Notes: a model not told the origin generated them from the letters alone. 30,311 nt of DNA from a virus (IMGVR_UViG_2778261541_000010:1-30311); one strand, 5' to 3'. Shown: positions 12,085 to 30,311, numbered from the stretch's first letter. A program made the numbers and translations.

Positions 12085-12095
12085 GCATGGTACTA

Positions 12096-12110: not shown

Positions 12111-12127
12111 CTATTACCACGGTGGTT

Positions 12128-14196: not shown

Positions 14197-14237
14197 TCCG
14201 CTGGTGGGGATAATACTGCTGATATCCTCTGGTGAGG

Positions 14238-14266: not shown

Positions 14267-14286
14267 GTTTGTGACATGTCACGGTG

Positions 14287-14667: not shown

Positions 14668-14678
14668 AATCTCACCTT

Positions 14679-14702
14679 AAAAAAATGCCCGGTTCGCCGG
14701 GC
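14679..14702 (-). terminator. Intrinsic terminator directly upstream of the moron gene RBS (minus strand)
   Basis: Minus-strand GCCCGG-CGAA-CCGGGC followed by ATTTTTTT, then AAGGTGAG and the ATG. Confidence 0.65.
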
Positions 14703-14780
14703 GAACTGGAAGCAATGAGTTATGCCTTCCGTGGCTGTACTGGTTTACAGCATGAAGTCATCGCAATGGCGTCCTGCTGT

Positions 14781-14822
14781 AAAAAGGGCGGTGATAGTCC
14801 TTCAAGGGAAACCATCACCGCC
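14781..14822 (-). terminator. Terminator downstream of tRNA-Arg (minus strand)
   Basis: 9-bp stem GGCGGTGAT/ATCACCGCC with structured loop, followed on the minus strand by CTTTTTAC. Confidence 0.55.
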
Positions 14823-14865
14823 AAGCACCTGGAACTTCTGGCATCACGGTCCTTAGGCGTGATTC

Positions 14866-14942
14866 TGGCGTGGCATGCAGGATTCGAACCTGCGACCAAC
14901 CGCTTAGAAGGCGGTTGCTCTGTCCGACTGAGCTAATGCCAC
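14866..14942 (-). tRNA. tRNA-Arg (anticodon UCU), phage-encoded, with encoded CCA
   Basis: Reverse complement folds as a 77-nt cloverleaf: acceptor GTGGCAT/ATGCCAC, D-arm GCTC-AGTCGGACA-GAGC, anticodon arm ACCGC-CTTCTAA-GCGGT (anticodon TCT), T-arm GCAGG-TTCGAAT-CCTGC, discriminator G, CCA. Confidence 0.9.
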
Positions 14943-15264
14943 AACGCTGAGAGCACTTAGCCTGTTAAGGCGCCACACTTTGTCGCGGCTCCATAAATGC
15001 TCTCATCGTTGTACCCTCGCCTCTTCCGAGGCGTCACACCGAATCGCCGGGATGGTGAATCCCCGTGCGCGGAATAAAACCGCTCGACTTGCACATTCCG
15101 GCTACCTGGTTCGTTTGCCCGAGCAAGGGAGGGTGCCCCTTAAACGTATCCAGACCGCTATCGGCGCATGTGCCATACGCCGTACTGCTCAAAATAAAAG
15201 CTCACTCCACCTGTTCAATTTAACGACAAGCCAGTCAGGTTAGTAACCGGAATGAACCCTTTAC

Positions 15265-15279
15265 TTACCTGAAAGGTAA
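15265..15279. promoter_or_regulatory. Operator: TTACCTGAAAGGTAA upstream of the virion-gene operon
   Basis: Perfect palindrome about 90 bp upstream of the first structural gene. Confidence 0.65.
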
Positions 15280-15369
15280 TAATTCGTGCGTTAAATGTCA
15301 ACTATCTACGATAAATAAATCATATATGGTTAAATTGGTGATAATTTAATTGCGTACGGAGTCATTGAT

Positions 15370-15576
15370 ATGTGCATGGGTAGCTCACCATCAGTGCCTG
15401 CAACACCAGAAGTTCAGGCAGCACCACAGGAGCAGGATGCCGCCGTTGTTGATGCCCGCGACGAAGAAACACGTCGCCGTCGCGCTGCTGCTGGTCGTAG
15501 TTCTACGCTGCTTACCGGTTCTCAGGGCGACACATCAACCGCTAATACCAGCGGTAAAACGCTGCTTGGTCAGTAA
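15370..15576 (+). CDS. Small virion-associated protein (T7 gp6.7-like, tentative)
   Basis: 68-aa ORF starting MC..., Ala/Gly/Ser/Thr-rich, ACGGAG RBS, directly upstream of the portal gene; the overlapping 79-aa frame is rejected. Confidence 0.45.
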   Translation: MCMGSSPSVPATPEVQAAPQEQDAAVVDARDEETRRRRAAAGRSSTLLTGSQGDTSTANTSGKTLLGQ

Positions 15577-15590
15577 CCGGAGTCATTGAA

Positions 15591-17270
15591 ATGGCGGAAA
15601 CAACTAAAGAGCGATTGAACAAACAGTTCGCACAACTTGAAAGCGAGCGTCAGTCGTTCGAGCCGCACTGGCGCGAGTTGAGTGATTACATCAACCCGCG
15701 TGGTTCCCGCTTTCTGACTTCTGAGGTCAACCGTAACGATCGACGCAATACACGCATTATTGATTCTACCGGGACTATGGCGGCGCGCACTCTCGCCAGC
15801 GGCATGATGTCAGGCATCACAAGCCCCGCGCGTCCGTGGTTTCGCCTGGCTACGCCAGATCCTGAAATGATGGATTATGGCCCTGTTAAGTTGTGGCTTG
15901 AGGCGGTGCAGAACCGCATGAACGATATGTTCAATAAGTCGAATCTCTATCAGTCACTGCCGCAGTTATACGGAAGCCTAGGCACATACAGCACTGGTGC
16001 AATGGCAGTGCTGGAGGATGATGAGGACATCATTCGCACAATGCCATTCCCGATAGGCAGTTACTACCTGGCTAACTCACCTCGTGGCAGTGTGGACACC
16101 TGTTTTCGCAAGTTCTCTATGACTGTTCGTCAGCTTGTTCAGGAGTTCGGACTAAATAACGTCAGCGAATCCGTAAAAAGCATGTGGGAAAGCGGCACCT
16201 ACGAGAAGTGGATTGAAGTGATGCATTCGGTTTACCCGAACATTGACCGCGATACATCGAAGCTGGATAGCAAGAACAAGCCATTCAAATCGGTTTATTA
16301 CGAGGTTGGTGGCGATAACGACAAGTTGTTGCGTGAGTCCGGATTTGATGAGTTTCCAATTATGGCTCCGCGCTGGGAAGTTAATGGCGAAGATGTTTAT
16401 GGATCATCATGCCCGGGTATGCTGGCGCTTGGACCTGTTAAGGCATTGCAACTTCTCCAGAAGCGCAAGTCGCAGTTGATTGATAAAGCCACCAATCCGC
16501 CGATGGTTGCTCCGACTTCCCTCAAGAATCAGCGCGCCTCCCTTCTTCCTGGCGACATCACGTATATCGATCAGATTACTGGTCAGGATGGCTTCAGGCC
16601 TGCTTATCTGGTTAACCCCAGTACAGCAGATCTGGTAGCAGACATTCAGGACACTCGTCAAATCATTAACAGCGCCTACTTTGTCGATCTGTTCATGATG
16701 TTGCAGAACATCAATACCCGCTCGATGCCTGTTGAAGCAGTGATCGAAATGAAAGAAGAAAAACTTCTGATGTTGGGGCCGGTTCTGGAGCGTCTGAACG
16801 ACGAATGTCTTAATCCTCTCATTGACCGCGCTTTCTCGATGATGGTGCGTAAAAACATGCTGCCGCCACCGCCTGACGCGATGGAAGGTATGCCCCTGAA
16901 GGTCGAATACATTTCCGTCATGGCTCAGGCGCAGAAGTCTATCGGCCTGTCCAGTCTGGCGTCTACGGTCAACTTCATTGGTCAACTTGCGCAAGCGAAA
17001 CCAGAAGCTCTCGACAAACTCAACGTTGATCAGGCGATCGATGCATTCGCTGATATGTCCGGAGTGTCTCCAACCGTCATTGTTCCGCAGGAACAGGTTG
17101 AGCAGGCTCGCCAGCAACGGGCACAGCAACAACAGCAGCAACAAATGATGGCGATGGGGATGGCGGCGGCACAGGGGGCCAAGACGCTAAGCGAAGCTAA
17201 AACTTCGGATCCGAGTGTGTTGTCAGCTATGGCGAATGCAGTTAGTGGTCAGGGTGGGCAATCACAATGA
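15591..17270 (+). CDS. Portal protein, T7 gp8-like
   Basis: 559 aa; Q-rich C-terminus (QQRAQQQQQQQMMAMGMAAAQGA) parallels the T7 gp8 C-terminus; position before scaffold and capsid. Confidence 0.75.
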   Translation: MAETTKERLNKQFAQLESERQSFEPHWRELSDYINPRGSRFLTSEVNRNDRRNTRIIDSTGTMAARTLASGMMSGITSPARPWFRLATPDPEMMDYGPVKLWLEAVQNRMNDMFNKSNLYQSLPQLYGSLGTYSTGAMAVLEDDEDIIRTMPFPIGSYYLANSPRGSVDTCFRKFSMTVRQLVQEFGLNNVSESVKSMWESGTYEKWIEVMHSVYPNIDRDTSKLDSKNKPFKSVYYEVGGDNDKLLRESGFDEFPIMAPRWEVNGEDVYGSSCPGMLALGPVKALQLLQKRKSQLIDKATNPPMVAPTSLKNQRASLLPGDITYIDQITGQDGFRPAYLVNPSTADLVADIQDTRQIINSAYFVDLFMMLQNINTRSMPVEAVIEMKEEKLLMLGPVLERLNDECLNPLIDRAFSMMVRKNMLPPPPDAMEGMPLKVEYISVMAQAQKSIGLSSLASTVNFIGQLAQAKPEALDKLNVDQAIDAFADMSGVSPTVIVPQEQVEQARQQRAQQQQQQQMMAMGMAAAQGAKTLSEAKTSDPSVLSAMANAVSGQGGQSQ

Positions 17271-17563
17271 CAGATTACGAAGACGATCAACTGAAAGAAG
17301 AAAACGCCCGTAAGCAACGTGACATGGCGCAGCGTGAAATTGATGACATTCGCTTTGTCATGAGCAGTGAACAGGGGCGTCGCGTTGTCTGGTCGGTGCT
17401 GGAGAAAGGCCGTGTGTTTTCCGCTATCTCACCGATGGACGCTATGGCAATGGCATTTAATGAGGGGCAACGCAATCTGGCGCTGGAACTGTTTCAGCGC
17501 GTTATGGCGCATTGCCCTGAACAGTATTTGAAGATGGCCAAAGAGGCCAGTGAACAGGAGTGA
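17267..17563 (+). CDS. Hypothetical head-module protein (98 aa)
   Basis: ATGA overlap with portal stop; between portal and scaffold. Confidence 0.45.
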   Translation: MTDYEDDQLKEENARKQRDMAQREIDDIRFVMSSEQGRRVVWSVLEKGRVFSAISPMDAMAMAFNEGQRNLALELFQRVMAHCPEQYLKMAKEASEQE

Positions 17564-17565
17564 TC

Positions 17566-18261
17566 ATGAATTTATTTGAGCGTTTGCTGTATCGCCGTCT
17601 TTGCAATGAGCAACCAGTCGATGGTGGAGCAGCTCCGGCTGCGTCAGAACCGTCAGCGCCTGCAGGTGATAACCCTGCTCCAGTTGGTGATCCATCACAA
17701 CAGGAAGGTGATAAGCCACAACCTGTTGCTGATGGCGATAAACCTGCTGATGACAAAAAGCCTGAAAACGATAAGCAGGATGAAAAAAAGGACGGCGATA
17801 AACCAGAGGGTGCGCCTGAGAAGTACGAGTTTCAGGCAGCCGAAGGCGTAGAGCTGGATACAGAAGCGTTGAAGGAATTCGAGCCGGTGGCGCGAGAACT
17901 TAACCTGACCAACGAGCAAGCGCAAAAGCTGGTTGATGCTTATCCGAAGATTCTGGCAGGTGTTCAGCAGCGCCAGGCAGAAGCCTGGCAGAAAACAACC
18001 GAGCAGTGGGCTGCGGATGTAAAAGCTGACAAAGAAATCGGTGGCGACAAGTTGATTTCTAACCTTAGCGCCGCACAGCGTGCGCTTGACCAGTTCGGGA
18101 CACCTGAACTCAAAGAATATCTGAACACCACCGGGCTGGGTAATCACCCTGATCTGGTCAAAACGTTCGTGAAAATCGGAAAGGCGATGTCTGAAGATGG
18201 CATGGTCACCGGTGGTAATGAAGGCCAGCGTAGTGCGGCCGAAGTGCTCTATGGCAAATAA
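17566..18261 (+). CDS. Scaffolding protein
   Basis: Acidic, Pro/Asp/Lys-rich low-complexity N-terminal half and helical C-terminal half; located between portal and capsid; ATG 17566 with AGGAG RBS. Confidence 0.6.
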   Translation: MNLFERLLYRRLCNEQPVDGGAAPAASEPSAPAGDNPAPVGDPSQQEGDKPQPVADGDKPADDKKPENDKQDEKKDGDKPEGAPEKYEFQAAEGVELDTEALKEFEPVARELNLTNEQAQKLVDAYPKILAGVQQRQAEAWQKTTEQWAADVKADKEIGGDKLISNLSAAQRALDQFGTPELKEYLNTTGLGNHPDLVKTFVKIGKAMSEDGMVTGGNEGQRSAAEVLYGK

Positions 18262-18275
18262 GAGAGGAAATGACA

Positions 18276-19262
18276 ATGGCTGTTAAAGGCTTAACTGCGC
18301 TAACGCTGGCTGACTGGGGTAAGCGCGTCGATCCAAACGGGAAAGTCGATAAGATTATCGAGCTTCTCGGTCAAACTAACCCGATCCTTCAGGATATGCC
18401 TTTTGTCGAAGGGAACCTTCCTACCGGACACCGAACCACCATTCGTTCTGGTTTACCTTCAGCTACCTGGCGTTTGCTGAACTATGGCGTACAGCCAAGC
18501 AAATCAACCACAGTGCAGGTAACCGATTCCGTTGGCATGCTGGAAACCTATGCTGAAGTCGATAAATCACTGGCTGATCTGAACGGCAATTCCGCTGAAT
18601 TCCGCCTGTCTGAAGACCGCGCATTTATTGAAGCGATGAATCAGCAGATGGCGCAGACGCTGTTTTATGGTGATTCCAGCGTTAACCCTCAGCAGTTTAT
18701 GGGACTGTCCTCCCGCTATTCCAGCCTGTCTGCGGGTAATGCTCAGAACATCATTGATGCTGGTGGCACGGGTACAGATAACACCTCAATCTGGTTAGTG
18801 GTGTGGGGCGAAAACACCGTGCATGGCATCTTCCCGAAAGGGCAGAAGGCTGGCATCCAGATGGAAGATAAAGGCCAGGTGACACTGGAAGATGCTAATG
18901 GCGGCAAGTACGAAGGCTATCGCACCCATTACAAATGGGACAACGGACTTGCTCTGCGTGACTGGCGTTATGTTGTTCGCATTGCAAACATCGATGTCAG
19001 CAATCTTTCAGAACCTTCCTCTGCCGCAAATATTGCGAAGTTGATGGTTAAAGCACTGCATCGCATTCCAAACCGTGGAATGGGTCGCCCGGTGTTCTAC
19101 ATGAACCGCACTGTAGGCCAGGCTCTTGATCTGCAATCTCTGGAGAAAACATCTCTGGCGATCAGCGTAAAAGAGACAGAAGGCGAGTGGTGGACTTCAT
19201 TCCGTGGTGTACCAATCCGTGAAACTGATGCGCTTCTGGAAACAGAAGCCCGTGTGGTGTAA
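18276..19262 (+). CDS. Major capsid protein
   Basis: About 330 aa, immediately after scaffold, size and position typical of HK97-fold coat proteins; ATG 18276 has GAGG at optimal spacing. Confidence 0.65.
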   Translation: MAVKGLTALTLADWGKRVDPNGKVDKIIELLGQTNPILQDMPFVEGNLPTGHRTTIRSGLPSATWRLLNYGVQPSKSTTVQVTDSVGMLETYAEVDKSLADLNGNSAEFRLSEDRAFIEAMNQQMAQTLFYGDSSVNPQQFMGLSSRYSSLSAGNAQNIIDAGGTGTDNTSIWLVVWGENTVHGIFPKGQKAGIQMEDKGQVTLEDANGGKYEGYRTHYKWDNGLALRDWRYVVRIANIDVSNLSEPSSAANIAKLMVKALHRIPNRGMGRPVFYMNRTVGQALDLQSLEKTSLAISVKETEGEWWTSFRGVPIRETDALLETEARVV

Positions 19263-19313
19263 CGCCTGTTATTAACCAGTGGGTCGTAACAGACCCACTA
19301 ATGGAGAAAGAAG

Positions 19314-19751
19314 ATGATCACCGACAAACTGTTGATGTTCTCCGAAGCACAGGCGGTAACTGATACCGCGGCTTCTACTGACGTAATCGATCTAGGTCCA
19401 ATTGATGGAAATCGTCGCGATATCGGCGTGGGTTACCCGCTTGAGTTTTGGGCGCTGGTTAACGAAGCCGCCACGGCAAGTGGTGAGGCAACTGTAAACA
19501 TCCAGTTGCAGACGAGTGAGAATAACAGCTCATGGTCCACTATTTATGATAGTGGCGCACTGGCAAAGGCTACCCTGACAGCAGGTAAACGAGTTGTTTC
19601 TGCAAAGGTGCCTGCCGGTGTTCAGCGATATCTGCGTGTTAACTACTCCGTCGCAACTGGCCCACTAACGGCCGGCAAATTCACTGCGGGTATTAGTCTG
19701 GATGTTGATGCCAATACACCGTACCCGATCCGCTCAAAATTAACTGGTTAA
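19314..19751 (+). CDS. Putative capsid decoration/cement protein
   Basis: 145-aa Ala/Thr/Gly-rich ORF directly after the capsid gene, GGAGAAAG RBS. Confidence 0.4.
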   Translation: MITDKLLMFSEAQAVTDTAASTDVIDLGPIDGNRRDIGVGYPLEFWALVNEAATASGEATVNIQLQTSENNSSWSTIYDSGALAKATLTAGKRVVSAKVPAGVQRYLRVNYSVATGPLTAGKFTAGISLDVDANTPYPIRSKLTG

Positions 19752-19761
19752 GGTGATTTCG

Positions 19762-20097
19762 ATGTCAGGTGAGAAACCAAGATACCGCGTTCTGCGCCTC
19801 TCTCATATCCATAACACACTGTGGCCGGAGGGGGCAGAAATCGAATACGAAGGTGAGCCTGGTAGCGCACTGGAACCTGTTAACGATGCAGCCAGACAGG
19901 CAAAAGCAAAGGTAGCAGGAAAGGTGACTATGGCAGCAACCAGCACCAAAATCATCAACGATGTGTCAGATGATGGTGAACTGGATAAGCTCCGTGAAGA
20001 GTACGAATTGCTCTTTAACGAGAAGCCACACCATAACGCCAAAGCCGAAACGCTCCGCGAGAAGATCGCAGATAAGCGTAAAGAACTGGGCGTGTAA
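19762..20097 (+). CDS. Hypothetical virion-module protein (111 aa)
   Basis: ATG 19762 preceded by AAGGTGA (track start 19753 is a GTG inside the RBS); followed by a terminator-like hairpin. Confidence 0.45.
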   Translation: MSGEKPRYRVLRLSHIHNTLWPEGAEIEYEGEPGSALEPVNDAARQAKAKVAGKVTMAATSTKIINDVSDDGELDKLREEYELLFNEKPHHNAKAETLREKIADKRKELGV

Positions 20098-20114
20098 GCC
20101 TCGCGAATCAGACA

Positions 20115-20135
20115 AGGGGCTTCGGCCCCTTTATT
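20115..20135 (+). terminator. Terminator-like hairpin inside the virion operon
   Basis: AGGGGC-TTCG-GCCCCT followed by TTATT, between the 111-aa and 107-aa genes. Confidence 0.5.
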
Positions 20136-20147
20136 GCAGGAGTGTAT

Positions 20148-20471
20148 ATGGAACTCGTAAACCTCAAAACCGGCACTGACAGCTACCAGGATGAGAGCGG
20201 AGAAACCAGAACTCGCGATGAATACCCGTGGGGGCTGTGCATCACGCTGAATAACGACACATTGAATAAGCTGAAGGCGCAACCTCAGGGCGTCGGAACA
20301 GAAGTGATGATAACTGCAAAGGCTGTTATTCGAGGCCTGTCTGCCAGAGAAACTGACGATGGTGTTAATCGCAGCGCCGATCTGCAGATCACTGATATGG
20401 CAATCGCTCCTGTTTCCGGTGATGTAGAAAAATCAGCGGCTGAAACCCTCTACGGTAACGGGGGTGAGTGA
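20148..20471 (+). CDS. Hypothetical virion-module protein (107 aa)
   Basis: ATG 20148 with CAGGAG RBS; stop overlaps next start. Confidence 0.45.
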   Translation: MELVNLKTGTDSYQDESGETRTRDEYPWGLCITLNNDTLNKLKAQPQGVGTEVMITAKAVIRGLSARETDDGVNRSADLQITDMAIAPVSGDVEKSAAETLYGNGGE

Positions 20472-21076
20472 TGGCCTCTGTAGTAGAGATCTGTAATCGT
20501 GCGCTGTCCAATATTGGCAACAGCCGCAGCATTAACAGCCTGACGGAAGCCAGCAAGGAAGCAGGGGAATGTTCGCTGCACTTTGAGGCCTGCCGTGATG
20601 CTGTGCTTTCTGATTTTGACTGGAACTTTGCTACCAAACGCGTGGCGCTTGCAGATACGAACAATCCACCGCCTGACTGGGAATATGCGTACCAGTACCC
20701 GTCCGATTGTCTGCGCATTACTGAAATTATGCTTCCTGGTGTACGCAATCCAACAGCAGCAATGCGCGTCCAGTACGAAGTGGGTGCAGACACCAATGGA
20801 ACAGGAAAGTTGATCTACACAGGCCAGCCGCAGGCATGGCTCAAGTATGTCTCTCGCGTTTCAGATGTAAACATGTTTGATGCCATTTTTATGGAGGCGC
20901 TGGCCTGGCGTCTTGCGGCAGCCATTAACATGGCGCTGACTGGGAATGCAGACCTCGGTACGTTTGCCCTCAATATGTACAATCGCGTGATTCTTAGTGC
21001 TGGCTCGCATAGCCAGAATGAATCACAGGAACCACAGCCACCGGTTGATGAGTTTACCATTGCGAGGTTGTCCTGA
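20471..21076 (+). CDS. Tail tubular protein A (T7 gp11-like)
   Basis: About 200 aa directly upstream of a gp12-like gene; N-terminal pattern N.AL..IG...L.E resembles gp11; GGGGTGAG RBS. Confidence 0.55.
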   Translation: MASVVEICNRALSNIGNSRSINSLTEASKEAGECSLHFEACRDAVLSDFDWNFATKRVALADTNNPPPDWEYAYQYPSDCLRITEIMLPGVRNPTAAMRVQYEVGADTNGTGKLIYTGQPQAWLKYVSRVSDVNMFDAIFMEALAWRLAAAINMALTGNADLGTFALNMYNRVILSAGSHSQNESQEPQPPVDEFTIARLS

Positions 21077-23541
21077 TGGCTATCAGTTGGATCCAGCCCA
21101 GCTTTGCCGGTGGTGAGATTGGACCGTCGTTGTACGGGCGTATTGACATGGCGAAGTACCAGGTAGCATTGCGCAAGTGCGATAACTTTATCGTGCGGCA
21201 GTATGGCGGCGTTGAGAATCGACCTGGTACGCGTTTTGTCGGTGTCGCCAAATACCCAAATCGGAAATGCCGCCTGATCCCGTTCCAGTTCTCGACGGTT
21301 CAGACTTATGCTCTGGAGTTCGGACACCAGTACATGCGCGTTATCAAAGATGGTGCGTTGGTGCTGAACAGCAGCAATGTTATTTATGAAATTGCCACGC
21401 CATATACTGAAGCCGATCTGTTCCGAATTAAATTCACGCAAAGCGCCGACGTGCTTACGCTGGTTCACCCGGCATACCCGCCGAAAGAGCTGCGCCGCTA
21501 TGCGCATGACAACTGGCAACTGGTTGATGTGGTAACGAAGAACGGGCCATTTGAAGATATCAATATTGATGAGTCAGTGACGGTTTATGCCAGCGCCAGC
21601 ACCGGGACAATTACGTTAACGGCAAGCGCCTCTATTTTTGGCGCGGAGCAGGTAGGCAAATTGTTCTATCTGGAACAGCCTGCAGTGGATTCTGTGCCGG
21701 TATGGGAAACCAGTAAGAGTACGTCGATTGGCGATATTCGCCGTGCAGACAGTAACTACTATCGCGCCGTTACAGCAGGCAAAACAGGCACTTTGCGCCC
21801 TTCGCATACAGAAGGCACATCATGGGATGGCTGGGGCGGATCCGGTGATGATGATACTGGCATTGAGTGGGAATATCTGCACAGTGGTTTTGGCATTGCC
21901 CGTATCACTGCTGCAAATGGAACTACTGCAACTGCCGAGGTGATTTCCTATATCCCTTCGCAGGTCGTTGGCGAGGATAATGCCAGCTATAAATGGGCTA
22001 AATATGCCTGGAACAGTGTTAATGGTTATCCTGGCACTGTTGTTTATTATCAACAACGTCTTTACTTCGCCGCATCGACTGCGTTCCCTCAGACTATCTG
22101 GGCCAGCCGTACCGGGGATTATAAGGATTTTGGCAAAAGCAATCCTACGCAGGATGACGACAGAATTATCTACACCTATGCCGGGCGTCAGGTTAATGAG
22201 ATCCGTCACCTGATTGATGTTGGTTCTCTGGTGGCGCTGACTTCCGGAGGTGAGTACGTCATCACCGGCGACCAGAACAAAGTGTTAACCCCATCATCAT
22301 TTGCATTCAGCTCTCAGGGATCAAATGGCTCAAGCAACGTCCCACCAATTGCTGTGGCGAATATTGCTCTGTTCGTCCAGGAGAAAGGCAGCGTTGTCCG
22401 TGATCTGGCCTACTCATTCGATGTTGACGGCTATCAGGGGAACGACCTGACCATCCTTGCCAATCATCTTTTTCAGAAGCACAGCATTGTTGACTGGTGC
22501 TTCTCTATTGTCCCTTACTCCAGCGCCTTCTGCATTCGTGATGACGGTAAATTACTGGTGATGACCTATTTGCGTGATCAGCAGGTTTTTGCATGGGCAC
22601 CACAATCCAGTACCGGAAAATATGAAAGCACATGCAGTATCAGCGAAGGAAATGAAGATGCGGTGTATTTCGTCGTTAACCGAACCGTTAACGGGCAAAC
22701 AGTGAGATACATCGAGCGACTGTCCAGCCGTTTATTTACCAGCGATGAAGACGCTTTCTTTGTTGATTCTGGCCTTAGCTATGATGGAAGAAATACGTCT
22801 GACAGAACGATGACAATCATTGGTGGTTCTGGCGAATGGGATTACCGCGCGGAATATACAATCAGTGTTTCTGGTGGTGCGTACTTCACCAGTAGTGATG
22901 TCGGCGCGCAACTACAGTTCCCTTATACCGGAACTGATACTGGCGATGAAGTGTCAAAAGAATTACGTTGCGACATTATTTCTGTAACCAGCAATACCGC
23001 TGTAGTGGTTCGTGCTAACAGGAACGTCCCGCCATCCCTCAGGAATGTGGCCACCACGAACTGGCAGATGGCGCGCCGGACATTTGGAGGCCTGTCTCAT
23101 CTTGAAGGCCAGACCGTAAACATTCTCTCTGATGCGAACGTGGAACCACAGAAAGTGGTTTCCGGAGGTGCCGTCACGCTGGAATCTCCGGGGGCTGTAG
23201 TGCACATCGGCCTGCCAATAACTGCTGAATTCGAAACACTGGATATCAACATTAACGGACAGGAAACGCTGCTGGACAAAAAACAGGTGATCCCCTCCGT
23301 TACTCTGGTTGTGAATGCCAGTCGCGGCATCTGGGCGACTACGCCTGGCGGTAAATGGTACGAATATCCACAGCGTGAATTCGAGTTCTACGATGATCCT
23401 GTTGATGATGCTACCGGAAAAGTAGAAGTGAAACTGGACAGTAACTGGGGCAAAAACGGACGTGTAAAAATCCGTCAGCTTGATCCGTTGCCGCTGTCTG
23501 TTCTTGCCGTTATTCCTCGCCTTACTGTTGGGGGATTCTGA
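21076..23541 (+). CDS. Tail tubular protein B (T7 gp12-like)
   Basis: 821 aa (T7 gp12 is about 794 aa), follows the gp11-like gene, start overlaps upstream stop. Confidence 0.6.
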   Translation: MAISWIQPSFAGGEIGPSLYGRIDMAKYQVALRKCDNFIVRQYGGVENRPGTRFVGVAKYPNRKCRLIPFQFSTVQTYALEFGHQYMRVIKDGALVLNSSNVIYEIATPYTEADLFRIKFTQSADVLTLVHPAYPPKELRRYAHDNWQLVDVVTKNGPFEDINIDESVTVYASASTGTITLTASASIFGAEQVGKLFYLEQPAVDSVPVWETSKSTSIGDIRRADSNYYRAVTAGKTGTLRPSHTEGTSWDGWGGSGDDDTGIEWEYLHSGFGIARITAANGTTATAEVISYIPSQVVGEDNASYKWAKYAWNSVNGYPGTVVYYQQRLYFAASTAFPQTIWASRTGDYKDFGKSNPTQDDDRIIYTYAGRQVNEIRHLIDVGSLVALTSGGEYVITGDQNKVLTPSSFAFSSQGSNGSSNVPPIAVANIALFVQEKGSVVRDLAYSFDVDGYQGNDLTILANHLFQKHSIVDWCFSIVPYSSAFCIRDDGKLLVMTYLRDQQVFAWAPQSSTGKYESTCSISEGNEDAVYFVVNRTVNGQTVRYIERLSSRLFTSDEDAFFVDSGLSYDGRNTSDRTMTIIGGSGEWDYRAEYTISVSGGAYFTSSDVGAQLQFPYTGTDTGDEVSKELRCDIISVTSNTAVVVRANRNVPPSLRNVATTNWQMARRTFGGLSHLEGQTVNILSDANVEPQKVVSGGAVTLESPGAVVHIGLPITAEFETLDININGQETLLDKKQVIPSVTLVVNASRGIWATTPGGKWYEYPQREFEFYDDPVDDATGKVEVKLDSNWGKNGRVKIRQLDPLPLSVLAVIPRLTVGGF

Positions 23542-24005
23542 TGATCGATGTTCAAATTATTCCCGCAACCGAAGAGCATCTTCAGATGATTTTGCCGGAT
23601 GTTCGTCAGGCTGATATTGACGAACTGTATGCGGTATCGCTGATGACTACCGAAGATGCGCTGCGTGTTGGTCTGCGCACTGCGACTATGGCCTGGTCAG
23701 GGTTCGCGAACGGAGAACTGGTAACCATGTTTGGTGTATCTCCGGCGTCAATGATCGGTGGCAATGGTACGCCCTGGCTGGTAGGAACCAGCCGTATTGA
23801 AAAATATCAGAAGACATTTCTTCGCCACTGCCGACCTGTATTGCAGCAGATGCTGGCAGTTTATCCGCGCCTGGAAAACTACGTCGACGAGCGAAACCAT
23901 GTTGCCAAAGCATGGCTGCACTGGCTTGGATTCAGGCTTGAAGAAGCCGCGCCTTATGGTGCTCTTGGTCTTAATTTCCACAGATTTCACATGGAGAGAA
24001 AATAA
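23541..24005 (+). CDS. Hypothetical protein at the gp13 position (internal virion protein A-like, tentative)
   Basis: 154-aa ORF between the tail tubular B and gp14-like genes; overlapping start/stop. Confidence 0.4.
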   Translation: MIDVQIIPATEEHLQMILPDVRQADIDELYAVSLMTTEDALRVGLRTATMAWSGFANGELVTMFGVSPASMIGGNGTPWLVGTSRIEKYQKTFLRHCRPVLQQMLAVYPRLENYVDERNHVAKAWLHWLGFRLEEAAPYGALGLNFHRFHMERK

Positions 24006-24580
24006 TGTGCGATCCGGTTATTGCTGGTGGCGCAATGCTCGCCATGAGTGGCATTCAGGCATACACCCAGTACCAACAGGGAAAGTATGCCTCGAAGGTT
24101 GCAGAAGCGAACGCAGATATAGCCACTGCTCAGGCAAATGATGCAATAAACAGAGGTAACGCTGAAGCTGAGCAACGGCGCAGAGAGACCCGACAGCGGC
24201 TTGGTACACAAGCGGCGACAATGGGGGCGACCGGCGCCGATTTATCTACCGGTAACGCGCTGGATATATTTGGCGACACTGCCCAGTTTGGCGCTCTTGA
24301 TGCGTTAACGACAGTGAATAACGCTCAGCGTGAGGCATATGGGTATCAGGTTCAGGGAATGAATGCTCGGGCACAGGGGGCTGCTGCTCAGTCGGCTGCT
24401 AAATCATCGATGACCAGCACTTTGTTAACGGCACCACTAAAAGCATACGGTGCGTACCAGATGTTTGGTGGGACGTGGAGTCCGTTCTCTAAAGGAAGTA
24501 CATCTAGTGGTGGGACGCCAATGTTATCTAACTCAGGTTTTATGAATTCTGACTCCCGATTCAAAATAGGAGGTTACTGA
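24005..24580 (+). CDS. Internal virion protein B (T7 gp14-like)
   Basis: 191 aa, begins MC..., Ala/Gln/Gly-rich, size and position like T7 gp14. Confidence 0.5.
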   Translation: MCDPVIAGGAMLAMSGIQAYTQYQQGKYASKVAEANADIATAQANDAINRGNAEAEQRRRETRQRLGTQAATMGATGADLSTGNALDIFGDTAQFGALDALTTVNNAQREAYGYQVQGMNARAQGAAAQSAAKSSMTSTLLTAPLKAYGAYQMFGGTWSPFSKGSTSSGGTPMLSNSGFMNSDSRFKIGGY

Positions 24581-27297
24581 TGCCTGTTGTTCCTACTACA
24601 TCCGGACGCCAGGTGCAAAGTCGTGGTGTGCAAACCGGTGGTTTTCAGACCTTCGATGTTCCTCAAGCAGGTCAGGTGCTGGCGAATGTCGCAGATCAGT
24701 ATGCGGTGACATATGGTGAAGCCAGGCAGAAAGCGAATGTTGCATTGTCTCAGGATGCCATCCTTCAGCTTAATCAGCGCAGCAATGAACGTCTTTATAA
24801 CCCTCAAACCGGTTTTTATGCACAACAAGGCAAAAATGCGATTGGTAAGGGGCAAGAGTACATATCTGGATTTGATCAGGATGTGGAAGAAATAGCTGCT
24901 TCATTGACTGATGAAGCTGCAAGAAATATGTTTTTGCAACAAGCCAGAACACAGAAAATTCAGTTCAGTACTGGAGTTCTCAGACATGAGATAGGGCAGA
25001 CAAATGCCTATGAAGATGAGCAATATCAGGCAACGAGAAAATTATGGATACAAAATGAAGCGGATGCCTGGAATGACCCGCAAACTGCCACTTTAGCCAG
25101 AAATTCCAGAATGGTAGCCATTGCCAGATATGGAGCTGCCAGGGGATGGTCACAAGAACGCATTCTGGAAGAAATAGAAAGTGATGATCGCAGTGCCACA
25201 GAAATGCGGGCGAAGAATTATGCCGCTGCCAATCCAGAAGGATGGCTAAATGGTCTGTTTCAGAAAAATGATTCTGGAGGCATGGACATGCGTGCCATAC
25301 GCCTTGTTGAATCAGGTGATCGACATTTTAATCCTGATGGTAGTCTTCTTGAGGGACCGATAACATCTTCTGGAGAGAGAGCCCAGGGGAAATACCAGTT
25401 AATGCCGGGCACAGGAAAAGAACTGGCGGCCAAGCGTGGCGTTGAATACAACCCTACGGACGAACAACAGCATGAAATGCTCGCCAGTGACTATGTAAAT
25501 CAACTGTATGGTAAGTACGGTTCCGAAATATTGACCGGAGCAGCATATAACTGGGGGATGGGTAACGTGGATAAACTGATCGCCAAAGTCGGTGATCCAC
25601 GTAAAGGTGAAATATCAGAAGAAGAATTTATCCGAAATCTTCCATCAGAAACACAAGGGTGGCTTTCCCGATATAGAAAAAATAAAACTGGAATGGATCC
25701 GCTGACTATTTATCAAATAGATAACCTTGCTAATAGTCAGATAGAAAAGCAAAGGAAGTTAATATTAGAACAGCTTGAGCCAGCTATTAATAACACCATG
25801 GCCCAGCTATATAACGGTGAGGTTCCAGATTATATACCGGCTCAGGAGACCATCATCAGGGGGTATGGAAAAAACGCAGATAAAATAATCAATCAACTGG
25901 ATATAGCGATTGATAACGCGAGAATATTCCAGGCAATTCAGTATTTGCCTCCTTCTCAGCAGCAAGAAGAAATGCAGAAAGTGAAGCCTGAGGTTAACGA
26001 TCCTCACTATGCGTTAAAACTCGATGCTTACGGAAAATTGTCTGCATTGCTTCAGAGATCAAATGAAGCAATTCAGGCGCAACGGGATTCACGCAGATTC
26101 AATGAGGCGCTGACAATAGGTGAAAAATTAGACCCAAGCAACAAGTCAATGCAGAAAGCTGCTGATTACACAGAAATGGCGCAGAACTTTCGTATTAATG
26201 ATGCCTCCACTCATGATGGGGTTGTTCGGCTTGTGGCTCAGACTGGCATAATGCCTTCGCAGGTCATCACGCAGCTTTCAGCAGTATCCCGATCCAGCAA
26301 TCAGGAAGTGGTTAAAAATGCGGCGGAACTGTTTAGTCGGTTATATGAAACAGACAATGCATCTATTGGAAATATGCCGAAGGATATGCAGGGTTTTTAT
26401 CTGACTGTTAAGCAACTAACTGATTCTGGCATGTCTGCTGATGCGGCTATCGAGCAGGCGCAGAACCTTACGTACAACCAGACCGATGCTCTTAAAGCTC
26501 AATTGGCATCAACGCAGAGTTCAAAAGAGTACAAAAATGATCGCAGCAAGGCGATGAATTCTGCTGTCAGCAATATGGCGCAGTGGTTCCGTTGGGATCC
26601 GTCTGCGGATGACCAGACGCCGGAAGCAGCTAGATTCCGTAATGACTATCAGACGCTGTATGACATTAACTACCGCGTTGCTGGTGGTAACGCTGACGTA
26701 GCGAAGCAAATGACCAACCAGCAGATAGCCCGCACCTGGAGTATCAGCGAGGTTAACGGAGAAGCGCAGTTTATGAAATATGCACCGGAGGCGCTTTATC
26801 AATATGGGCCGTCAGGCTGGCAGGCGGCGCAGTGGAAAGCTGAAAAAGAACGGCTGATGTACGGTGAGCGCAAAGAGATTATAACAACCAGCCCGACGTT
26901 GCTTGGGATCACGTCAGGTAATGCTCCTGTAGTTGAGACAAAAACCCCTGAGAGTCGTATTAATGGAGAATTATTCATAACCCCTGACGTGTTAACACCC
27001 CGTAATGGTGATTACGCCATTATGGTAAGAACTAAGGATGAAAATGGCATCGATCGGGTCCAGCCGTTTTATAACAAACATGGGCGTCCTATGCGTTGGG
27101 AACCATCACTAGAAGATTGGGAACCCTATAAGAAAATGCAGCAGGAACGGGAGCAGTACGAGCAGGAAGAAATTATGCGTGGACAGGCTATACGAAACTT
27201 CAAAGACAAGCATCGCGCTCTGGATGAGCAGTATCAGCGCCTGCATAACGAACGTATGGACAAATTTAAAGATTACTTTTCGTGGGGATCTAAATAA
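24580..27297 (+). CDS. Internal virion/ejection protein with lytic transglycosylase (SLT) domain
   Basis: LVESGDRHF...AQGKYQLMPGTGKE...AAYNWGMGNV matches the catalytic ES / QLM / AYN-G motifs of soluble lytic transglycosylases; 905 aa in the gp15/gp16 position. Confidence 0.75.
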   Translation: MPVVPTTSGRQVQSRGVQTGGFQTFDVPQAGQVLANVADQYAVTYGEARQKANVALSQDAILQLNQRSNERLYNPQTGFYAQQGKNAIGKGQEYISGFDQDVEEIAASLTDEAARNMFLQQARTQKIQFSTGVLRHEIGQTNAYEDEQYQATRKLWIQNEADAWNDPQTATLARNSRMVAIARYGAARGWSQERILEEIESDDRSATEMRAKNYAAANPEGWLNGLFQKNDSGGMDMRAIRLVESGDRHFNPDGSLLEGPITSSGERAQGKYQLMPGTGKELAAKRGVEYNPTDEQQHEMLASDYVNQLYGKYGSEILTGAAYNWGMGNVDKLIAKVGDPRKGEISEEEFIRNLPSETQGWLSRYRKNKTGMDPLTIYQIDNLANSQIEKQRKLILEQLEPAINNTMAQLYNGEVPDYIPAQETIIRGYGKNADKIINQLDIAIDNARIFQAIQYLPPSQQQEEMQKVKPEVNDPHYALKLDAYGKLSALLQRSNEAIQAQRDSRRFNEALTIGEKLDPSNKSMQKAADYTEMAQNFRINDASTHDGVVRLVAQTGIMPSQVITQLSAVSRSSNQEVVKNAAELFSRLYETDNASIGNMPKDMQGFYLTVKQLTDSGMSADAAIEQAQNLTYNQTDALKAQLASTQSSKEYKNDRSKAMNSAVSNMAQWFRWDPSADDQTPEAARFRNDYQTLYDINYRVAGGNADVAKQMTNQQIARTWSISEVNGEAQFMKYAPEALYQYGPSGWQAAQWKAEKERLMYGERKEIITTSPTLLGITSGNAPVVETKTPESRINGELFITPDVLTPRNGDYAIMVRTKDENGIDRVQPFYNKHGRPMRWEPSLEDWEPYKKMQQEREQYEQEEIMRGQAIRNFKDKHRALDEQYQRLHNERMDKFKDYFSWGSK

Positions 27298-30200
27298 TGC
27301 CAGTTTATGCACAAGCTGAAGATCTTAATAACGGACTGATCCCGTCAGGTAACGTTTTGCCGGAACAAACTGGGTTTGATGTTGCCCTTCCGGAAGGGGC
27401 TAATCCTGAGCCATTGCCACCTGAGCCTTCCGTATGGGGGGCTGCAATGCGACAGAACAATATTCTGTCTGGTTTTTTCCGCCCAGCCAGACAGTTTGAA
27501 CCGGTCGAGGGTTATAACCCATATGCTGATAAAAATGAGTTGCACGGTTATGAATACTGGGGGGCGAAATTTGCAGATTCCCGATCGCCAGAGGAAACGG
27601 CGTGGATTAAGCAGCAGATAGATGATGAAAATGAAGACAGACGTTTATTGTCTGATGCTGGCGTAGTTGGAACCCTTGCCAGTATTGCTGCGGGAATGGA
27701 TCCGGTTACTGTTGCGTCAATGTTTATTCCCGGTGCTCAAGGAGGGGCACTGGCGCGTATTGGCTCACAGATTGCGATTGGTGCTGCCGGTACAGCATTA
27801 AGCGAGGTTGTACTGAATAATCAGCAAATAACACGCTCATGGGGTGAAAGTGCCGCTCACGTTGCAGCGGGTGCGATGATGAGCGGCGTGTTTGCCAGTG
27901 CTGGTGTTGCGCTTTCGCCATCCGTCCGGGCTGCAGCCACACGTGAGGTTGCTGATGCTCTTGATAATATGAGCATTACATCAGCGACTGACAGGGCTGC
28001 CGCTTCGCTTTCCGATGGTGGTAGTGTTGGTGCTATGAAAATTGATACAGCGGCTCTGGATGATTTAACCCCTGTTTCCGGTGGGTGGGTTGGAAAGGCT
28101 GCATGGAAAGCAGGGAGCTATCTTACTCCTTTGACAAGGTTAATGGAGTCTCCGTCCAAGACGGTGCGAAAAACAGCGCTGGAGTTAGCCGAAAATAATT
28201 TCACCCTTAAAGGAAATGAAAGGGGGATTGAAACACCGGTAGCTGTAGAAACCCGTACACGTGGATGGCAGCGTGAAGAAGCTGCTGTTGTTGTCGGAAA
28301 TAAACAGGCATACGCAAAGTATAAAGCTGATGGTGGTGACATGAGTTTTGATTCATTTCGTCAGCAGGTTGGGAATGCTATGCGAAGCGGTGATGTGCAT
28401 GCTAATCCTGTTGTTCAGGAAACGGCGCAGGCGATGCGAACTGTATTAAATCGGGTGAAAGTTGAAATGCAAAAGCTTGGTTTATTGCCGCCAGATGAAG
28501 AACTGAAAGCATTAGGCCAGGCAAGCTATTTCCCACGCATATATAAAGTTGGAAAAATAATCAGTGAACGCGATAAATTTCGACGTATTTTGGTTGACTG
28601 GTGGTCGAGAGGAAATAAAACACTGGATCCTGAGGATGCTGAAATTGCAGCGGATATCGTAATTAATAAAATTACTGGTGCTAAGGTTCCACAGGATTTT
28701 GTCAGCGTATTTTCTGTAAAAGCCGCAGGTAGTACGAAAGAAAGAACATTAAATGTTCCTGATAGTCTTATCAGGGATTATCTTGAAAGTGATGTGAATT
28801 ACGTGCTGCAACGTCATATCCGTGAAGCGGCAGCAGAAATTGAGTTGACGAGAACATTTGGCAAACGAACTATGACTGAGCGTCTGCAATTAATTGAGGA
28901 CGAATATGACAGTCTGTTACGGGAAGTGCCTGAAAAAATAAAGGCGAAATATGACGAAAGTGTGGCAAATCTGAAAGCACGTTATGAGAGCAATGGTGAA
29001 GTTGTTCCTCAGGGTAAACTCGATTCATTAATGCGAAAGTACGAAAAGGAATTACGGAAAGAACAGTCCAGACTTTCAAAATCAAGAGCAAATGATCTCA
29101 GAGACATAACAGCATTACGCGATCGTCTTGTTGGTACATATGGTATGCCTGATGATCCGTCTTCGTTTTTTGTTCGTGCTGGCGCTTTTCTGCGGGATGT
29201 GAACTTCACGACCAAACTCGGTGGAATGACTGTATCAGCTATTCCAGATCTGGCCAGAGGGGTTATGGTTAATGGTTTCCGTAACACCATGAAAGGCTAT
29301 GCTTCTCAGATATCCCAATCACCGGCATTTAAGGCCAGCAAAGAAGAGATGTTGAAGATGGGGATTGGATTGGAAGCTGTACTACATTCACGTTCTCGTG
29401 CAATTGGTGATCTTGTTGACAGTTCTTCCAGGACAACAGCAGTCGAAGCAGGAATGGAGCGAATTACTGATGCCTTCGGCAAGCTGACACTCATGGATCG
29501 ATTTAATGACATAAACAAATCCATGAACGGAATGCTCACGTCAGACGGTATTTTGTCTGGTGCGTTTTCTGCACGTCGCATGGCAAAACTCGGTATCAAC
29601 GACAATATGGCTGCGCGTATTCGCAGTGAGTTCGAGAAACATGGTGAGGTAATTGATGGATGGCACATTGGTAACTTTGATAAATGGGACGATCAGTACG
29701 TTGCCGGAGTATTCCAGTCAGCGGTTCTGAAAGACGTTAATAACACTATCATCACCCCCGGTATTGGTGACACACCTTTATGGGCGAGTACTCCAATGGG
29801 GCGAACGATATTTCAGTTTAAATCATTCACAACGGCTTCATACAACCGTGCGCTACTTGGTGGGTTACAGGAAGGAACTGCGCAATTTTATTATGGCACT
29901 GTATTTCAGATTGCTCTTGGCTCACTGGTCTATGCGCTAAAAGAAGCATCGAAAGGGAAAAATGTTGACTGGTCACCAGAGAAGCTGGTGCTTGAGGGTA
30001 TAGATAGATCCGGTATTCTTGGGCCATTGATGGAATATAACAACATGGCTGAAAAGGCTACTGGTGGTGCTGTTGGGCTGGGGGCTTTATTTGGCACTGG
30101 CACACAGTCTAGGTATGCCAGTCGTGGATTCGTAGGATCTCTATTCGGACCGTCATTTGGTCTTGCGGATAGCATCATTGATGTGACCGCAGGAGTGTTG

Positions 30201-30311
30201 AATGGTGATGCCGGTGATCGTATTGTGCATAATGTCCGAACCCTGATACCAGGCAATAACCTGTTCTGGATTGCGCCACTAATAAACCAGGTGGATCCGG
30301 TGATGCGGTGA
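27297..30311 (+). CDS. Large internal virion/ejection protein (gp15/gp16-like); stop codon is the last triplet of the window
   Basis: 1004-aa ORF following the SLT protein; Ala/Gly-rich hydrophobic segment near residue 130-200; position matches T7 internal core proteins. Confidence 0.6.
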   Translation: MPVYAQAEDLNNGLIPSGNVLPEQTGFDVALPEGANPEPLPPEPSVWGAAMRQNNILSGFFRPARQFEPVEGYNPYADKNELHGYEYWGAKFADSRSPEETAWIKQQIDDENEDRRLLSDAGVVGTLASIAAGMDPVTVASMFIPGAQGGALARIGSQIAIGAAGTALSEVVLNNQQITRSWGESAAHVAAGAMMSGVFASAGVALSPSVRAAATREVADALDNMSITSATDRAAASLSDGGSVGAMKIDTAALDDLTPVSGGWVGKAAWKAGSYLTPLTRLMESPSKTVRKTALELAENNFTLKGNERGIETPVAVETRTRGWQREEAAVVVGNKQAYAKYKADGGDMSFDSFRQQVGNAMRSGDVHANPVVQETAQAMRTVLNRVKVEMQKLGLLPPDEELKALGQASYFPRIYKVGKIISERDKFRRILVDWWSRGNKTLDPEDAEIAADIVINKITGAKVPQDFVSVFSVKAAGSTKERTLNVPDSLIRDYLESDVNYVLQRHIREAAAEIELTRTFGKRTMTERLQLIEDEYDSLLREVPEKIKAKYDESVANLKARYESNGEVVPQGKLDSLMRKYEKELRKEQSRLSKSRANDLRDITALRDRLVGTYGMPDDPSSFFVRAGAFLRDVNFTTKLGGMTVSAIPDLARGVMVNGFRNTMKGYASQISQSPAFKASKEEMLKMGIGLEAVLHSRSRAIGDLVDSSSRTTAVEAGMERITDAFGKLTLMDRFNDINKSMNGMLTSDGILSGAFSARRMAKLGINDNMAARIRSEFEKHGEVIDGWHIGNFDKWDDQYVAGVFQSAVLKDVNNTIITPGIGDTPLWASTPMGRTIFQFKSFTTASYNRALLGGLQEGTAQFYYGTVFQIALGSLVYALKEASKGKNVDWSPEKLVLEGIDRSGILGPLMEYNNMAEKATGGAVGLGALFGTGTQSRYASRGFVGSLFGPSFGLADSIIDVTAGVLNGDAGDRIVHNVRTLIPGNNLFWIAPLINQVDPVMR

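Follow-up and report, generated by a model that had tools for sequence, protein, structure and literature searches.

The window analysed here, 30,311 nucleotides of viral DNA, has an integrase gene exactly at its beginning and a stop codon at its end, and positions 15370-30311 carry 14 virion genes on the plus strand. All 14 ORFs are intact, and the genes named in the original prediction lie where, and in the order in which, it had placed them. The first encodes a 68-aa protein (15370-15576) that falls in phrog_831 and is 88% identical to gp3 of Salmonella phage epsilon15. It is followed by the portal gene (15591-17270), whose product belongs to the T7 gp8 family (Pfam Head-tail_con PF12236, E=1.6e-187). 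T7 gp8 matches PF12236 as well, PHROGs 332 and 449 give reciprocal matches between the two portals, and the Q-rich C-terminal tail that had suggested the relationship, QARQQRAQQQQQQQMMAMGM, has its counterpart in T7 gp8, EEQKQQKMAQQSMQMGM. The nearest solved portal is that of Cobetia phage Carin-1 (8CK0, E=5.7e-179). A Bbp19-like protein of 98 aa is encoded next (17267-17563; Pfam PF25181, E=2.8e-17).

In the position that the capsid gene holds in T7 lies a gene (18276-19262) for an HK97-type major capsid protein that its sequence places in the epsilon15 gp7/BPP-1 family (Pfam PF20911, E=2.9e-149; NCBIfam MCP_gp7_epsi_15). Its matches in the PDB are 3J4U of Bordetella phage BPP-1 (the nearest, E=3.5e-129), 8CJZ of Carin-1 and 3J40 of epsilon15, and it matched neither the T7 Gp10A-like Pfam family nor the T7 capsid PHROG. 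The capsid proposed as T7-like is T7-like in position and not in sequence family. The three small genes said to lie between capsid and tail tubular protein A, with no counterpart there in T7, are present. They encode a Bbp16-like protein (19314-19751; Pfam PF21190, E=3.1e-48), whose namesake is called the "cementing protein" of BPP-1 in a note to the epsilon15 record, a small protein 39% identical to epsilon15 gp9 (19762-20097; phrog_590) and an epsilon15 gp10-like protein (20148-20471; Pfam Gp10-like PF21628, E=1.2e-51). The epsilon15 model in PDB 3J40 contains gp10 alongside the capsid protein gp7.

The ORF between the Bbp19-like and capsid genes (17566-18261) encodes a protein of 231 aa that databases call a protease or peptidase. 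It had no match in Pfam, NCBIfam or a PDB profile search; phrog_458, "protease", is its sole family label, and the protease label derives from a note of similarity to a "putative endoprotease". Neither a peptidase fold or family nor the catalytic residues that would mark a prohead protease were found. The N-terminal ~85 residues are of low complexity and rich in P, D and K, the remainder is helical, and the AlphaFold2 model, disordered and helical with a pLDDT of 45, was too poor for a fold search. The predicted scaffold keeps its T7-like position, and its supposed kinship to T7 gp9 does not hold, an hhalign comparison with the 231-aa family giving a probability of 0.1% and no similarity. This protein, a protease or peptidase in thousands of records, could be either scaffold or protease and is probably a scaffold; a likely mis-annotation of scaffold as protease would then have spread through databases. 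The genes for the small and large terminase subunits, which had been placed upstream of the portal, are indeed there (12131-14196, plus strand; Pfam Terminase_2). They are of a non-T7 type, with no match to the Pfam families of T7 gp19.

Kinship to T7 is clearer in the tail. The tail adaptor, or tubular tail protein A (20471-21076), gave an AlphaFold2 model (pLDDT 88) with the fold of T7 gp11, and Foldseek matched it to Carin-1 8CK1_E (8.5e-17), to proteins of LME-1 and PhiM1, to the tail tubular protein A of KP32 and to T7 gp11 itself (7BOX; E=1.9e-6, TM-score 0.55-0.59). The PDB entries 8CK0 and 8CK1 were recognised as Carin-1 from the description returned by the fold search. In sequence, the adaptor has no profile match to Pfam Tube PF17212, and a profile built from its close relatives did not reach T7 gp11 among PDB sequences, whereas the fold search did. 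The tail nozzle, or tubular tail protein B (21076-23541), belongs to the T7 gp12 superfamily: its nearest solved structure is the Carin-1 "Tail Nozzle" (8CK1_A, E=2.4e-218), its family profile reaches the "Tail tubular protein B" of cyanophage A4 (8e-10) and a "nozzle gp13" (1.7e-6), and hhalign aligned it to T7 gp12 over T7 residues 350-467 (E=1.3e-5). Both tubular tail proteins are thus related to those of T7 as proposed, the adaptor by fold and the nozzle by profile.

The four remaining genes encode internal proteins. The gp14-like small protein that had been predicted (24005-24580, 191 aa), a homologue of internal virion protein B, passes the threshold of Pfam T7_gp14 PF24072 (36.6 bits; cut-off 27). 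Two large internal proteins follow, one with a lytic transglycosylase domain, also as predicted. The one in the gp15 position (24580-27297, 905 aa) carries the Pfam SLT domain at residues 263-342. The other, a T7 gp16-like internal virion protein D without an SLT domain (27297-30311, 1004 aa), matches phrog_342, the PHROG of T7 gp16, over profile positions 203-1225 (E=3.7e-210) and has no sequence relative in the PDB. We also observed a gene that the original prediction had not listed (23541-24005): its 154-aa product, a T7 gp13-like homologue of internal virion protein A, has PHROG 308 as its best match, which it shares with T7 gp13, and is 63% identical to epsilon15 gp13.

In BLASTP the virion proteins matched the late proteins of T7 significantly at the SLT domain (E=2e-4), weakly at gp16 (E=0.004) and nowhere else, and because this search was nearly empty we tested kinship by profiles and folds. 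No protein of the window matched Pfam Tube, Phage_nozzle, Phage_T7_Gp13, Gp10A-like, Phage_T7_Capsid or Terminase-T7, the last three being the families by which we would recognise a T7 head module. By profile or fold, the portal, adaptor, central nozzle domain, gp13-, gp14- and gp16-like proteins and SLT domain are shared with T7, and the capsid protein, scaffold-position protein, decoration genes and terminase are not. The profile and structure searches proposed with the original prediction accordingly divide its T7-like virion module: gene order, portal, tail and internal proteins stand, and the label overstates the case for head proteins and terminase, which belong to other families. The order shared with T7 runs from portal through scaffold position, capsid, adaptor, nozzle, gp13, gp14 and gp15 position to gp16. 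The element differs from T7 in being temperate, in having genes on both strands, in the three inserted capsid accessory genes, in its terminase, which T7 has at the end and not upstream of the portal, and in its SLT domain, which T7 carries on gp16 and not on the gp15-position protein. These findings agree with Hardies et al. (2016), who reported that epsilon15 gp12, gp13, gp14 and gp17 are homologous to T7 tubular tail protein B and internal virion proteins, and with the description of the divergence of epsilon15-group proteins from T7 as ancient (PMC4819975).

No T7-type RNA or DNA polymerase is present in the window, as had been stated (tblastn, best E=0.4); T7 RNA polymerase likewise found no homologue in the window or in the full genomes of Escherichia phage TL-2011b and epsilon15 (best E 0.8), and no T7 promoter-like site had fewer than 5 mismatches in 18 positions. 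The element thus lacks the marks of the Autographiviridae, both a single-subunit RNA polymerase of its own and a family A DNA polymerase with all genes on one strand. It has those of the T7-related "transient tail" group, namely tail proteins A and B and internal proteins A, B and D in syntenic order.

The region that this module adjoins, with its integrase, recombination, immunity and replication genes, was rightly described as lambda-like. The integrase has the P4-type Arm-DNA-bind_3 domain that had been called, the repressor and a cro-like gene are in divergent arrangement, and of the O/P-like replication genes one encodes an initiator with a DnaT domain and the other a member of the lambda P family (E=1.5e-56). 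The presumed Bet/exonuclease pair is in fact a RecT annealing protein (PF03837) with a RecE-like PDDEXK nuclease. The early region further contains Ead/Ea22-like and DUF551 "nin-like" genes and a 344-aa ORF (4799-5833) that TL-2011b lacks; the longest ORF in positions 1-15370 has at most 491 aa. Family scans detected neither an N-type nor a Q-type antiterminator. On the minus strand are the early-left genes, the repressor and one ORF between terminase and portal. An integrase, a recombination pair, divergent repressor and cro and an initiator with a lambda P-family helicase loader are common to lambdoid phages such as lambda, Stx phages and P22; here, unlike in those phages, the pair is RecT with a RecE-like nuclease and not Bet with Exo, operators lie directly before late operons, and the late region is not lambda-like.

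The operator proposed at 15265 is real. The palindrome TTACCTGAAAGGTAA (15265-15279) is an instance of the motif TTACC-N5-GGTAA, which occurs nine times in the window against 0.61 expected and recurs in the epsilon15 record, where such sites, one of them upstream of gp3, are annotated as "repressor". Copies sit in the immunity region, directly upstream of terS (12096 and 12114) and upstream of the portal operon, and in epsilon15 the motif also lies ahead of the tailspike gene. In an alignment of six phages, the ~105-bp block from the operator at its left edge to the ATG at 15370 is near-invariant and the sequence to the left is not conserved. Since no phage RNA polymerase was found, transcription of the operon must fall to the RNA polymerase of the host. 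In a lysogen the phage repressor (6145-6729) probably silences the virion operon, directly or indirectly, through these operators. A sigma-70 scan around the operator passed no promoter, and the operator lies ~60 bp upstream of the sole operon-facing -10-like hexamer, (G/A)ATAAT at 15340-15345, and overlaps a promoter-like element that faces left, so that direct repression is only inferred.

This leftward element consists of TTGACA (15301-15296, minus strand) and, after a spacer of 17 nt, TACCTT, which lies within the operator; it is conserved in the six phages, and the rightward -10-like hexamer has a poor -35. It is therefore conceivable that the operator at 15265 mainly governs a leftward promoter, serving tRNA-Arg (the tRNA being the sole Rfam match) and an Sf6 gp66-like ORF, and that the virion operon is switched on not by derepression but by a phage activator, for which the "transcriptional regulator" gene immediately before terS could be a candidate. 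We consider this possible but rather unlikely: it is the side towards the gp3-like ATG, not the left side, that relatives conserve, and the operator is also found ahead of terS and, in epsilon15, of the tailspike gene, which fits direct control of late operons. For studies of direct late-gene repression in epsilon15-like phages, the conserved leader from operator to ATG could be of use.

The affiliation of the element is plain from its DNA. Positions 15370-30311 are 98.3% identical to TL-2011b over 99% of their length, and their first 9.1 kb are ~98% identical to phiV10, PAS61, ZX5 and phiv142-3 and ~76% identical to epsilon15. The early region is 97% identical to phiv142-3 over 87% of its length, and phiv142-3 is classified as Uetakevirus in its own record. 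At the protein level, 13 of the 14 virion proteins are 93-100% identical to those of TL-2011b, the gp14-like protein being the exception (84%). The ICTV guideline for a genus is ~70% nucleotide identity over the full genome length; the 30.3 kb available here reach 98.3% with TL-2011b in the virion module and 97% with phiv142-3 in the early region. The epsilon15-type capsid of Uetakevirus is present as well, as seen from the matches to PF20911, NF045672 (an equivalog), PF21628 and PDB 3J40. Another mark of the genus, a tailspike specific for O-antigen and with a conserved N-terminal anchor, would be encoded beyond the window. The literature (PMC11522302) counts both TL-2011b and phiV10 as Uetakevirus, while NCBI lists TL-2011b itself as unclassified Caudoviricetes. 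Judged by sequence, the window almost certainly comes from a temperate podophage or prophage of E. coli of the epsilon15-like type (Uetakevirus); it covers roughly three quarters of that genome, with 15370-30311 as the virion morphogenesis operon. The original prediction had named placement in an established genus as grounds for its refutation, and this is what we find: the element belongs to the well-described Uetakevirus, being ~98% identical to TL-2011b and phiV10.

With both phages the element shares gene order, integrase, RecT/RecE pair, repressor, DnaT/P replication genes and terminase; with phiV10 the 98% identity applies to the portal-to-gp14 part. It differs from them in its own gp14-like variant, whose residues 117-140 and 161-191 resemble neither phage, and in an early region closer to phiv142-3. 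Epsilon15 agrees with it in gene order and in the motif and positions of the operators, has similar proteins (portal 81%, adaptor 85%, nozzle 88% and TerL 94% identical), and differs in its capsid protein (43%) and capsid accessory proteins (37-43%). BPP-1, which has the nearest solved capsid protein and shares the Bbp16- and Bbp19-like genes, and Carin-1, which has the nearest solved portal, adaptor (~32% identical) and nozzle, differ in host and in the rest of their genomes. Cryo-EM structures thus exist for members or close relatives of the group.

A T7-related tail joined to lambda-like early genes could in principle have arisen recently, through capture of an Autographiviridae virion module by a lambdoid prophage in a chimera not seen before. 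T7 gene order from portal to gp16, the 1004-aa protein in the PHROG of T7 gp16 and an early region that is in parts 90-95% identical in DNA to Stx-converting lambdoid phages might all suggest as much. Yet the near-empty BLASTP comparison, the assignment of capsid, scaffold-position protein, terminase, adaptor and nozzle to other Pfam or PHROG families than those of T7, and the ancient divergence argue against it, and the same architecture is already found in epsilon15, phiV10, TL-2011b, Tyrion and PAT1 at 76-98% DNA identity. These families and known relatives effectively refute a recent chimera, which we hold to be exceedingly improbable. The probability of a P22-like (Lederbergvirus-type) module is closer still to nil. 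P22 follows the same logic, a short tail (adaptor gp4, nozzle gp10, ejection proteins gp7, gp20 and gp16) beside a temperate lambdoid early region, and the non-T7 terminase, for which the epsilon15 record cites an HHpred match to the Sf6 gene 2 protein, would suit it; we reject it since the portal shares its Pfam family with T7 gp8, the adaptor matches T7-type adaptors at 1e-6 to 1e-5 and P22 gp4 only at E=0.25 in Foldseek, and DNA and protein identity indicate the epsilon15 group.

That the window is a decayed, non-inducible prophage remnant with virion genes no longer functional is very unlikely too. Tailspike genes, lysis genes and attachment sites fall outside the window, and among complete E. 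coli genomes none matches the whole window at >=99%. On the other hand, none of the 14 virion ORFs is broken; they share 84-100% identity with their TL-2011b counterparts, 12 of them are 87-100% identical to proteins of the isolated phage phiV10, and TL-2011b carries the missing functions just past the equivalent end (tailspike gene at 35716-37809). At least 45 complete E. coli genomes contain at least 80% of a 25-kb query (window 5312-30311). The combination of T7-related tail and lambda-like early genes is the ancestral and already described architecture of the epsilon15-like group, not a recent hybrid; what looks like a "T7 virion on a lambda chassis" is how these common E. coli and Salmonella prophages are usually built, as already published. 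The main value of our analysis is in this respect negative, the window offering no new biology on the T7/lambda architecture.

By analogy with T7 and epsilon15, we envision that the portal, scaffold-position protein and capsid protein would build a procapsid, which the non-T7 terminase encoded upstream would fill with DNA. The adaptor and nozzle would then close the portal and carry tailspikes encoded beyond the window. During infection the internal proteins would leave the virion and form a channel through the cell envelope, with the SLT domain of the 905-aa protein cutting peptidoglycan.

As to the large internal proteins, phiV10 and epsilon15 have three (gp15, gp16 and gp17 in epsilon15) in place of the two found here. 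The N-terminal 250 aa of the 905-aa protein are ~44% identical to phiV10 p18, and the remainder has its relatives among proteins of Klebsiella and Vibrio podophages. The 1004-aa protein is 99.4% identical to TL-2011b gp38 and has no significant match to epsilon15 gp17. Both have their nearest relatives in genomes of Klebsiella prophages and marine Vibrio podophages. We see an even chance that this Uetakevirus operon, 98% identical elsewhere, had its cassette of ejection proteins (the "ejectosome") exchanged as a unit from ~24486 on, two large proteins replacing the three. If this is true and undescribed, it would show that podophage lineages of deep divergence can trade ejectosomes without a change of nozzle or gp13/gp14, and such a natural swap could guide engineering and structural work on podophage DNA delivery. 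Among E. coli, the putatively swapped module formed by the last two genes is a minority type.

This element belongs with the epsilon15-like temperate podophages, a common and named prophage type. When the virion module (15370-30311) was compared with phage records by megablast, it was 98.3% identical to Escherichia phage TL-2011b over 99% of the query; its first 9.1 kb was ~98% identical to phiV10, PAS61, ZX5, phiv142-3 and others, and the module shares 81% identity with Enterobacter phage Tyrion and ~76% with Salmonella phage epsilon15. The proteins of the window are each 93-100% identical to those of TL-2011b, apart from the gp14-like protein at 84%, and the early half is 97% identical to phiv142-3 over 87% of its length. 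Of 5,426 complete E. coli genomes, 45 or more have at least 80% of window positions 5312-30311, at ~98% identity. The records of epsilon15, phiV10, phiv142-3, Tyrion and PAT1 place all five in the genus Uetakevirus, and TL-2011b is termed a Uetakevirus in the literature (PMC11522302). The original prediction had described a T7-like virion module joined to a lambdoid backbone and had named membership of a known, well-described phage genus as the outcome that would count against it; the identities to Uetakevirus phages place the element in just such a genus. A distant T7 kinship of epsilon15-like phages is already documented, and the reading is descriptively right and not novel.

The virion genes and the early backbone were confirmed by domain and profile matches, and the inventory of genes proposed from the sequence holds. 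The virion block is an unbroken plus-strand run of 14 intact ORFs. It is preceded by the small and large terminase genes (12131-14196); between the two, on the minus strand, lie an ORF (14287-14667) and a tRNA-Arg(tct) gene (14866-14942). A further ORF at 14685-14936, labelled a hypothetical protein in TL-2011b (gp24) and phiV10 (p04), overlaps this tRNA antisense, and the coding call is probably spurious. The left half carries an integrase with a P4-type arm-binding domain (1-1251), an MT-A70 methyltransferase, Ead/Ea22-like and DUF551 genes, a minus-strand HTH repressor (6145-6729) facing a cro-like gene (6884-7114), a DnaT-domain initiator (7481-8278) and a lambda P-family protein (8260-9060, E=1.5e-56). 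It also encodes a RecE-like PDDEXK nuclease paired with an annealing protein, which is RecT and not Bet as had been proposed. A minus-strand ORF of 344 aa in the early-left operon (4799-5833; phrog_1376, function unknown) has a counterpart in phiv142-3 (Orf45) and none in TL-2011b.

To what extent is the virion module T7-like? Each T7 counterpart was tested singly using Pfam, PHROG, AlphaFold2 models with fold matching, profiles and BLASTP. The portal belongs to Pfam Head-tail_con (E=1.6e-187), the family into which T7 gp8 also falls; PHROG cross-hits between the two are reciprocal and both have a Q-rich C-terminal tail. The adaptor (tail A) has no sequence-profile link to Pfam Tube. Its confident AlphaFold2 model (pLDDT 88) matches the folds of Carin-1 8CK1_E, from a Cobetia phage (8.5e-17), LME-1, PhiM1 and KP32 tail tubular protein A, and in the same search it matched T7 gp11 at E=1.9e-6 (TM-score 0.55-0.59) and P22 gp4 at only E=0.25. 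The solved chain closest to the nozzle (tail B, 21076-23541) is the Carin-1 "Tail Nozzle", and a profile made from 40 nozzle relatives of 36-50% identity matches, at 8e-10, a cyanophage "Tail tubular protein B" and, at 1.7e-6, a "nozzle gp13". This profile aligns to residues 350-467 of T7 gp12 (E=1.3e-5), within the gp12 central domain (residues 354-556) that Hardies et al. 2016 (PMC4819975) reported. In public data the nozzle belongs to a very large family: 18,277 clusters (50% identity) match at E<=0.001, and the stricter threshold of E<=1e-30 leaves 9,151. Among the smaller and internal proteins, the best PHROG of the 154-aa protein (308) is shared with T7 gp13, and the 191-aa protein scores above the Pfam T7_gp14 cut-off. 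The 905-aa protein occupies the gp15 position and has an SLT domain at residues 263-342. The 1004-aa protein falls in PHROG 342, as does T7 gp16, covers profile positions 203-1225 and corresponds to gp16 minus its N-terminal SLT domain. Plain BLASTP of the window proteins against T7 found almost nothing, and the relationship is therefore ancient.

The T7-like description thus stands for the portal, adaptor fold, nozzle and gp13-, gp14- and gp16-like proteins, but not for the capsid, the scaffold-position protein, the accessory genes or the terminase. This division agrees with that of Hardies et al. [quoted passage not shown] By Pfam family the window's terminase is of a type other than T7's, and the protein in the scaffold position does not resemble T7 gp9. 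The capsid protein (18276-19262) belongs to the family of epsilon15 gp7 and Bordetella phage BPP-1. The three small genes reported to lack T7 counterparts do lack them and have a known explanation as epsilon15/BPP-1 capsid accessory proteins: they are Bbp16-like (PF21190), epsilon15 gp9-like and epsilon15 gp10-like (PF21628). In the epsilon15 record, gp8 is related to Bbp16, which is named as the BPP-1 "cementing protein" (PDB 3J4U), and gp10 is listed with gp7 in capsid model 3J40. The Bbp16-like gene comes directly after the capsid gene, the two together spanning 18276-19751. The capsid protein is nearer BPP-1 (3J4U, E=3.5e-129) than epsilon15 gp7 (3J40, E=1.4e-85; 43% identity), whereas epsilon15 shares 81-88% identity with the window in its portal, adaptor and nozzle; the head-shell genes thus form a separate mosaic unit.

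The 231-aa protein encoded between the portal and capsid genes (17566-18261) is labelled a protease or peptidase in databases, a label that goes back to a note recording similarity to a "putative endoprotease". The protein has no Pfam, NCBIfam or PDB-profile match; its first ~85 residues are P/D/K-rich and of low complexity, the remainder is predicted to be helical, and its AlphaFold2 model has a pLDDT of 45. With no match to a peptidase family or fold and no PDB relative, and given its disordered-then-helical character and scaffold position, it is probably mislabelled. Only position and composition favor the scaffold role that the original prediction gave it.

As had been noted, no T7-type RNA or DNA polymerase homologue was found by tblastn in the window, or in complete TL-2011b or epsilon15, and no T7 promoter-like sequence was found; we infer from these two results that host RNA polymerase must transcribe the virion module. 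The original prediction placed the module, apparently, under an operator at 15265. This palindrome (15265-15279) is real: TTACC-N5-GGTAA occurs nine times in the window against 0.61 expected, and sites with this motif are marked as repressor-binding in the epsilon15 record at equivalent places, one upstream of gp3. Pairs flank the repressor gene (6011/6073 and 6785/6833), follow the P gene (9098/9160) and lie directly upstream of terS (12096/12114), suggesting repressor control of several operons, packaging genes included; the copy before the virion operon is single. Among six phages otherwise 76-98% identical, the ~105-bp block from this operator to the gp3-like ATG (15265-15370) is nearly invariant, whereas sequence to its left cannot be aligned, a pattern supporting the view that the virion operon has a conserved regulatory leader. 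No sigma-70 consensus around the operator passed our scan. The sole rightward -10-like hexamer (15340-15345) lies ~60 bp downstream with a poor -35, and on the minus strand a conserved TTGACA-17-TACCTT, directed toward the tRNA and an Sf6 gp66-like ORF, overlaps the operator. For these reasons, direct repression of the virion operon through the 15265 operator is plausible but unproven.

DNA identity to phiV10 ends at ~24486, and sequence comparison indicates that 24486-30311 is a clean module exchange within an otherwise conserved operon. phiV10 and epsilon15 have three large internal proteins whereas the window and TL-2011b have two, the 905-aa SLT-domain protein and the 1004-aa gp16-like protein; the exchange can be seen in the TL-2011b genome as published. 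The 905-aa protein resembles phiV10 p18 over its first ~250 residues only (44%), and the closest relatives of its remainder and of the whole 1004-aa protein are in a Klebsiella prophage (29-40%) and Vibrio podophages (31-33%). Among the 5,426 complete E. coli genomes, 45 have the two-protein cassette and 317 the three-protein one. Right at the cassette junction, the gp14-like protein (24005-24580) is a small third variant, 191 aa compared with 181 aa in both TL-2011b and phiV10, and differs from both at residues 117-140 and in its C-terminal 30 residues.
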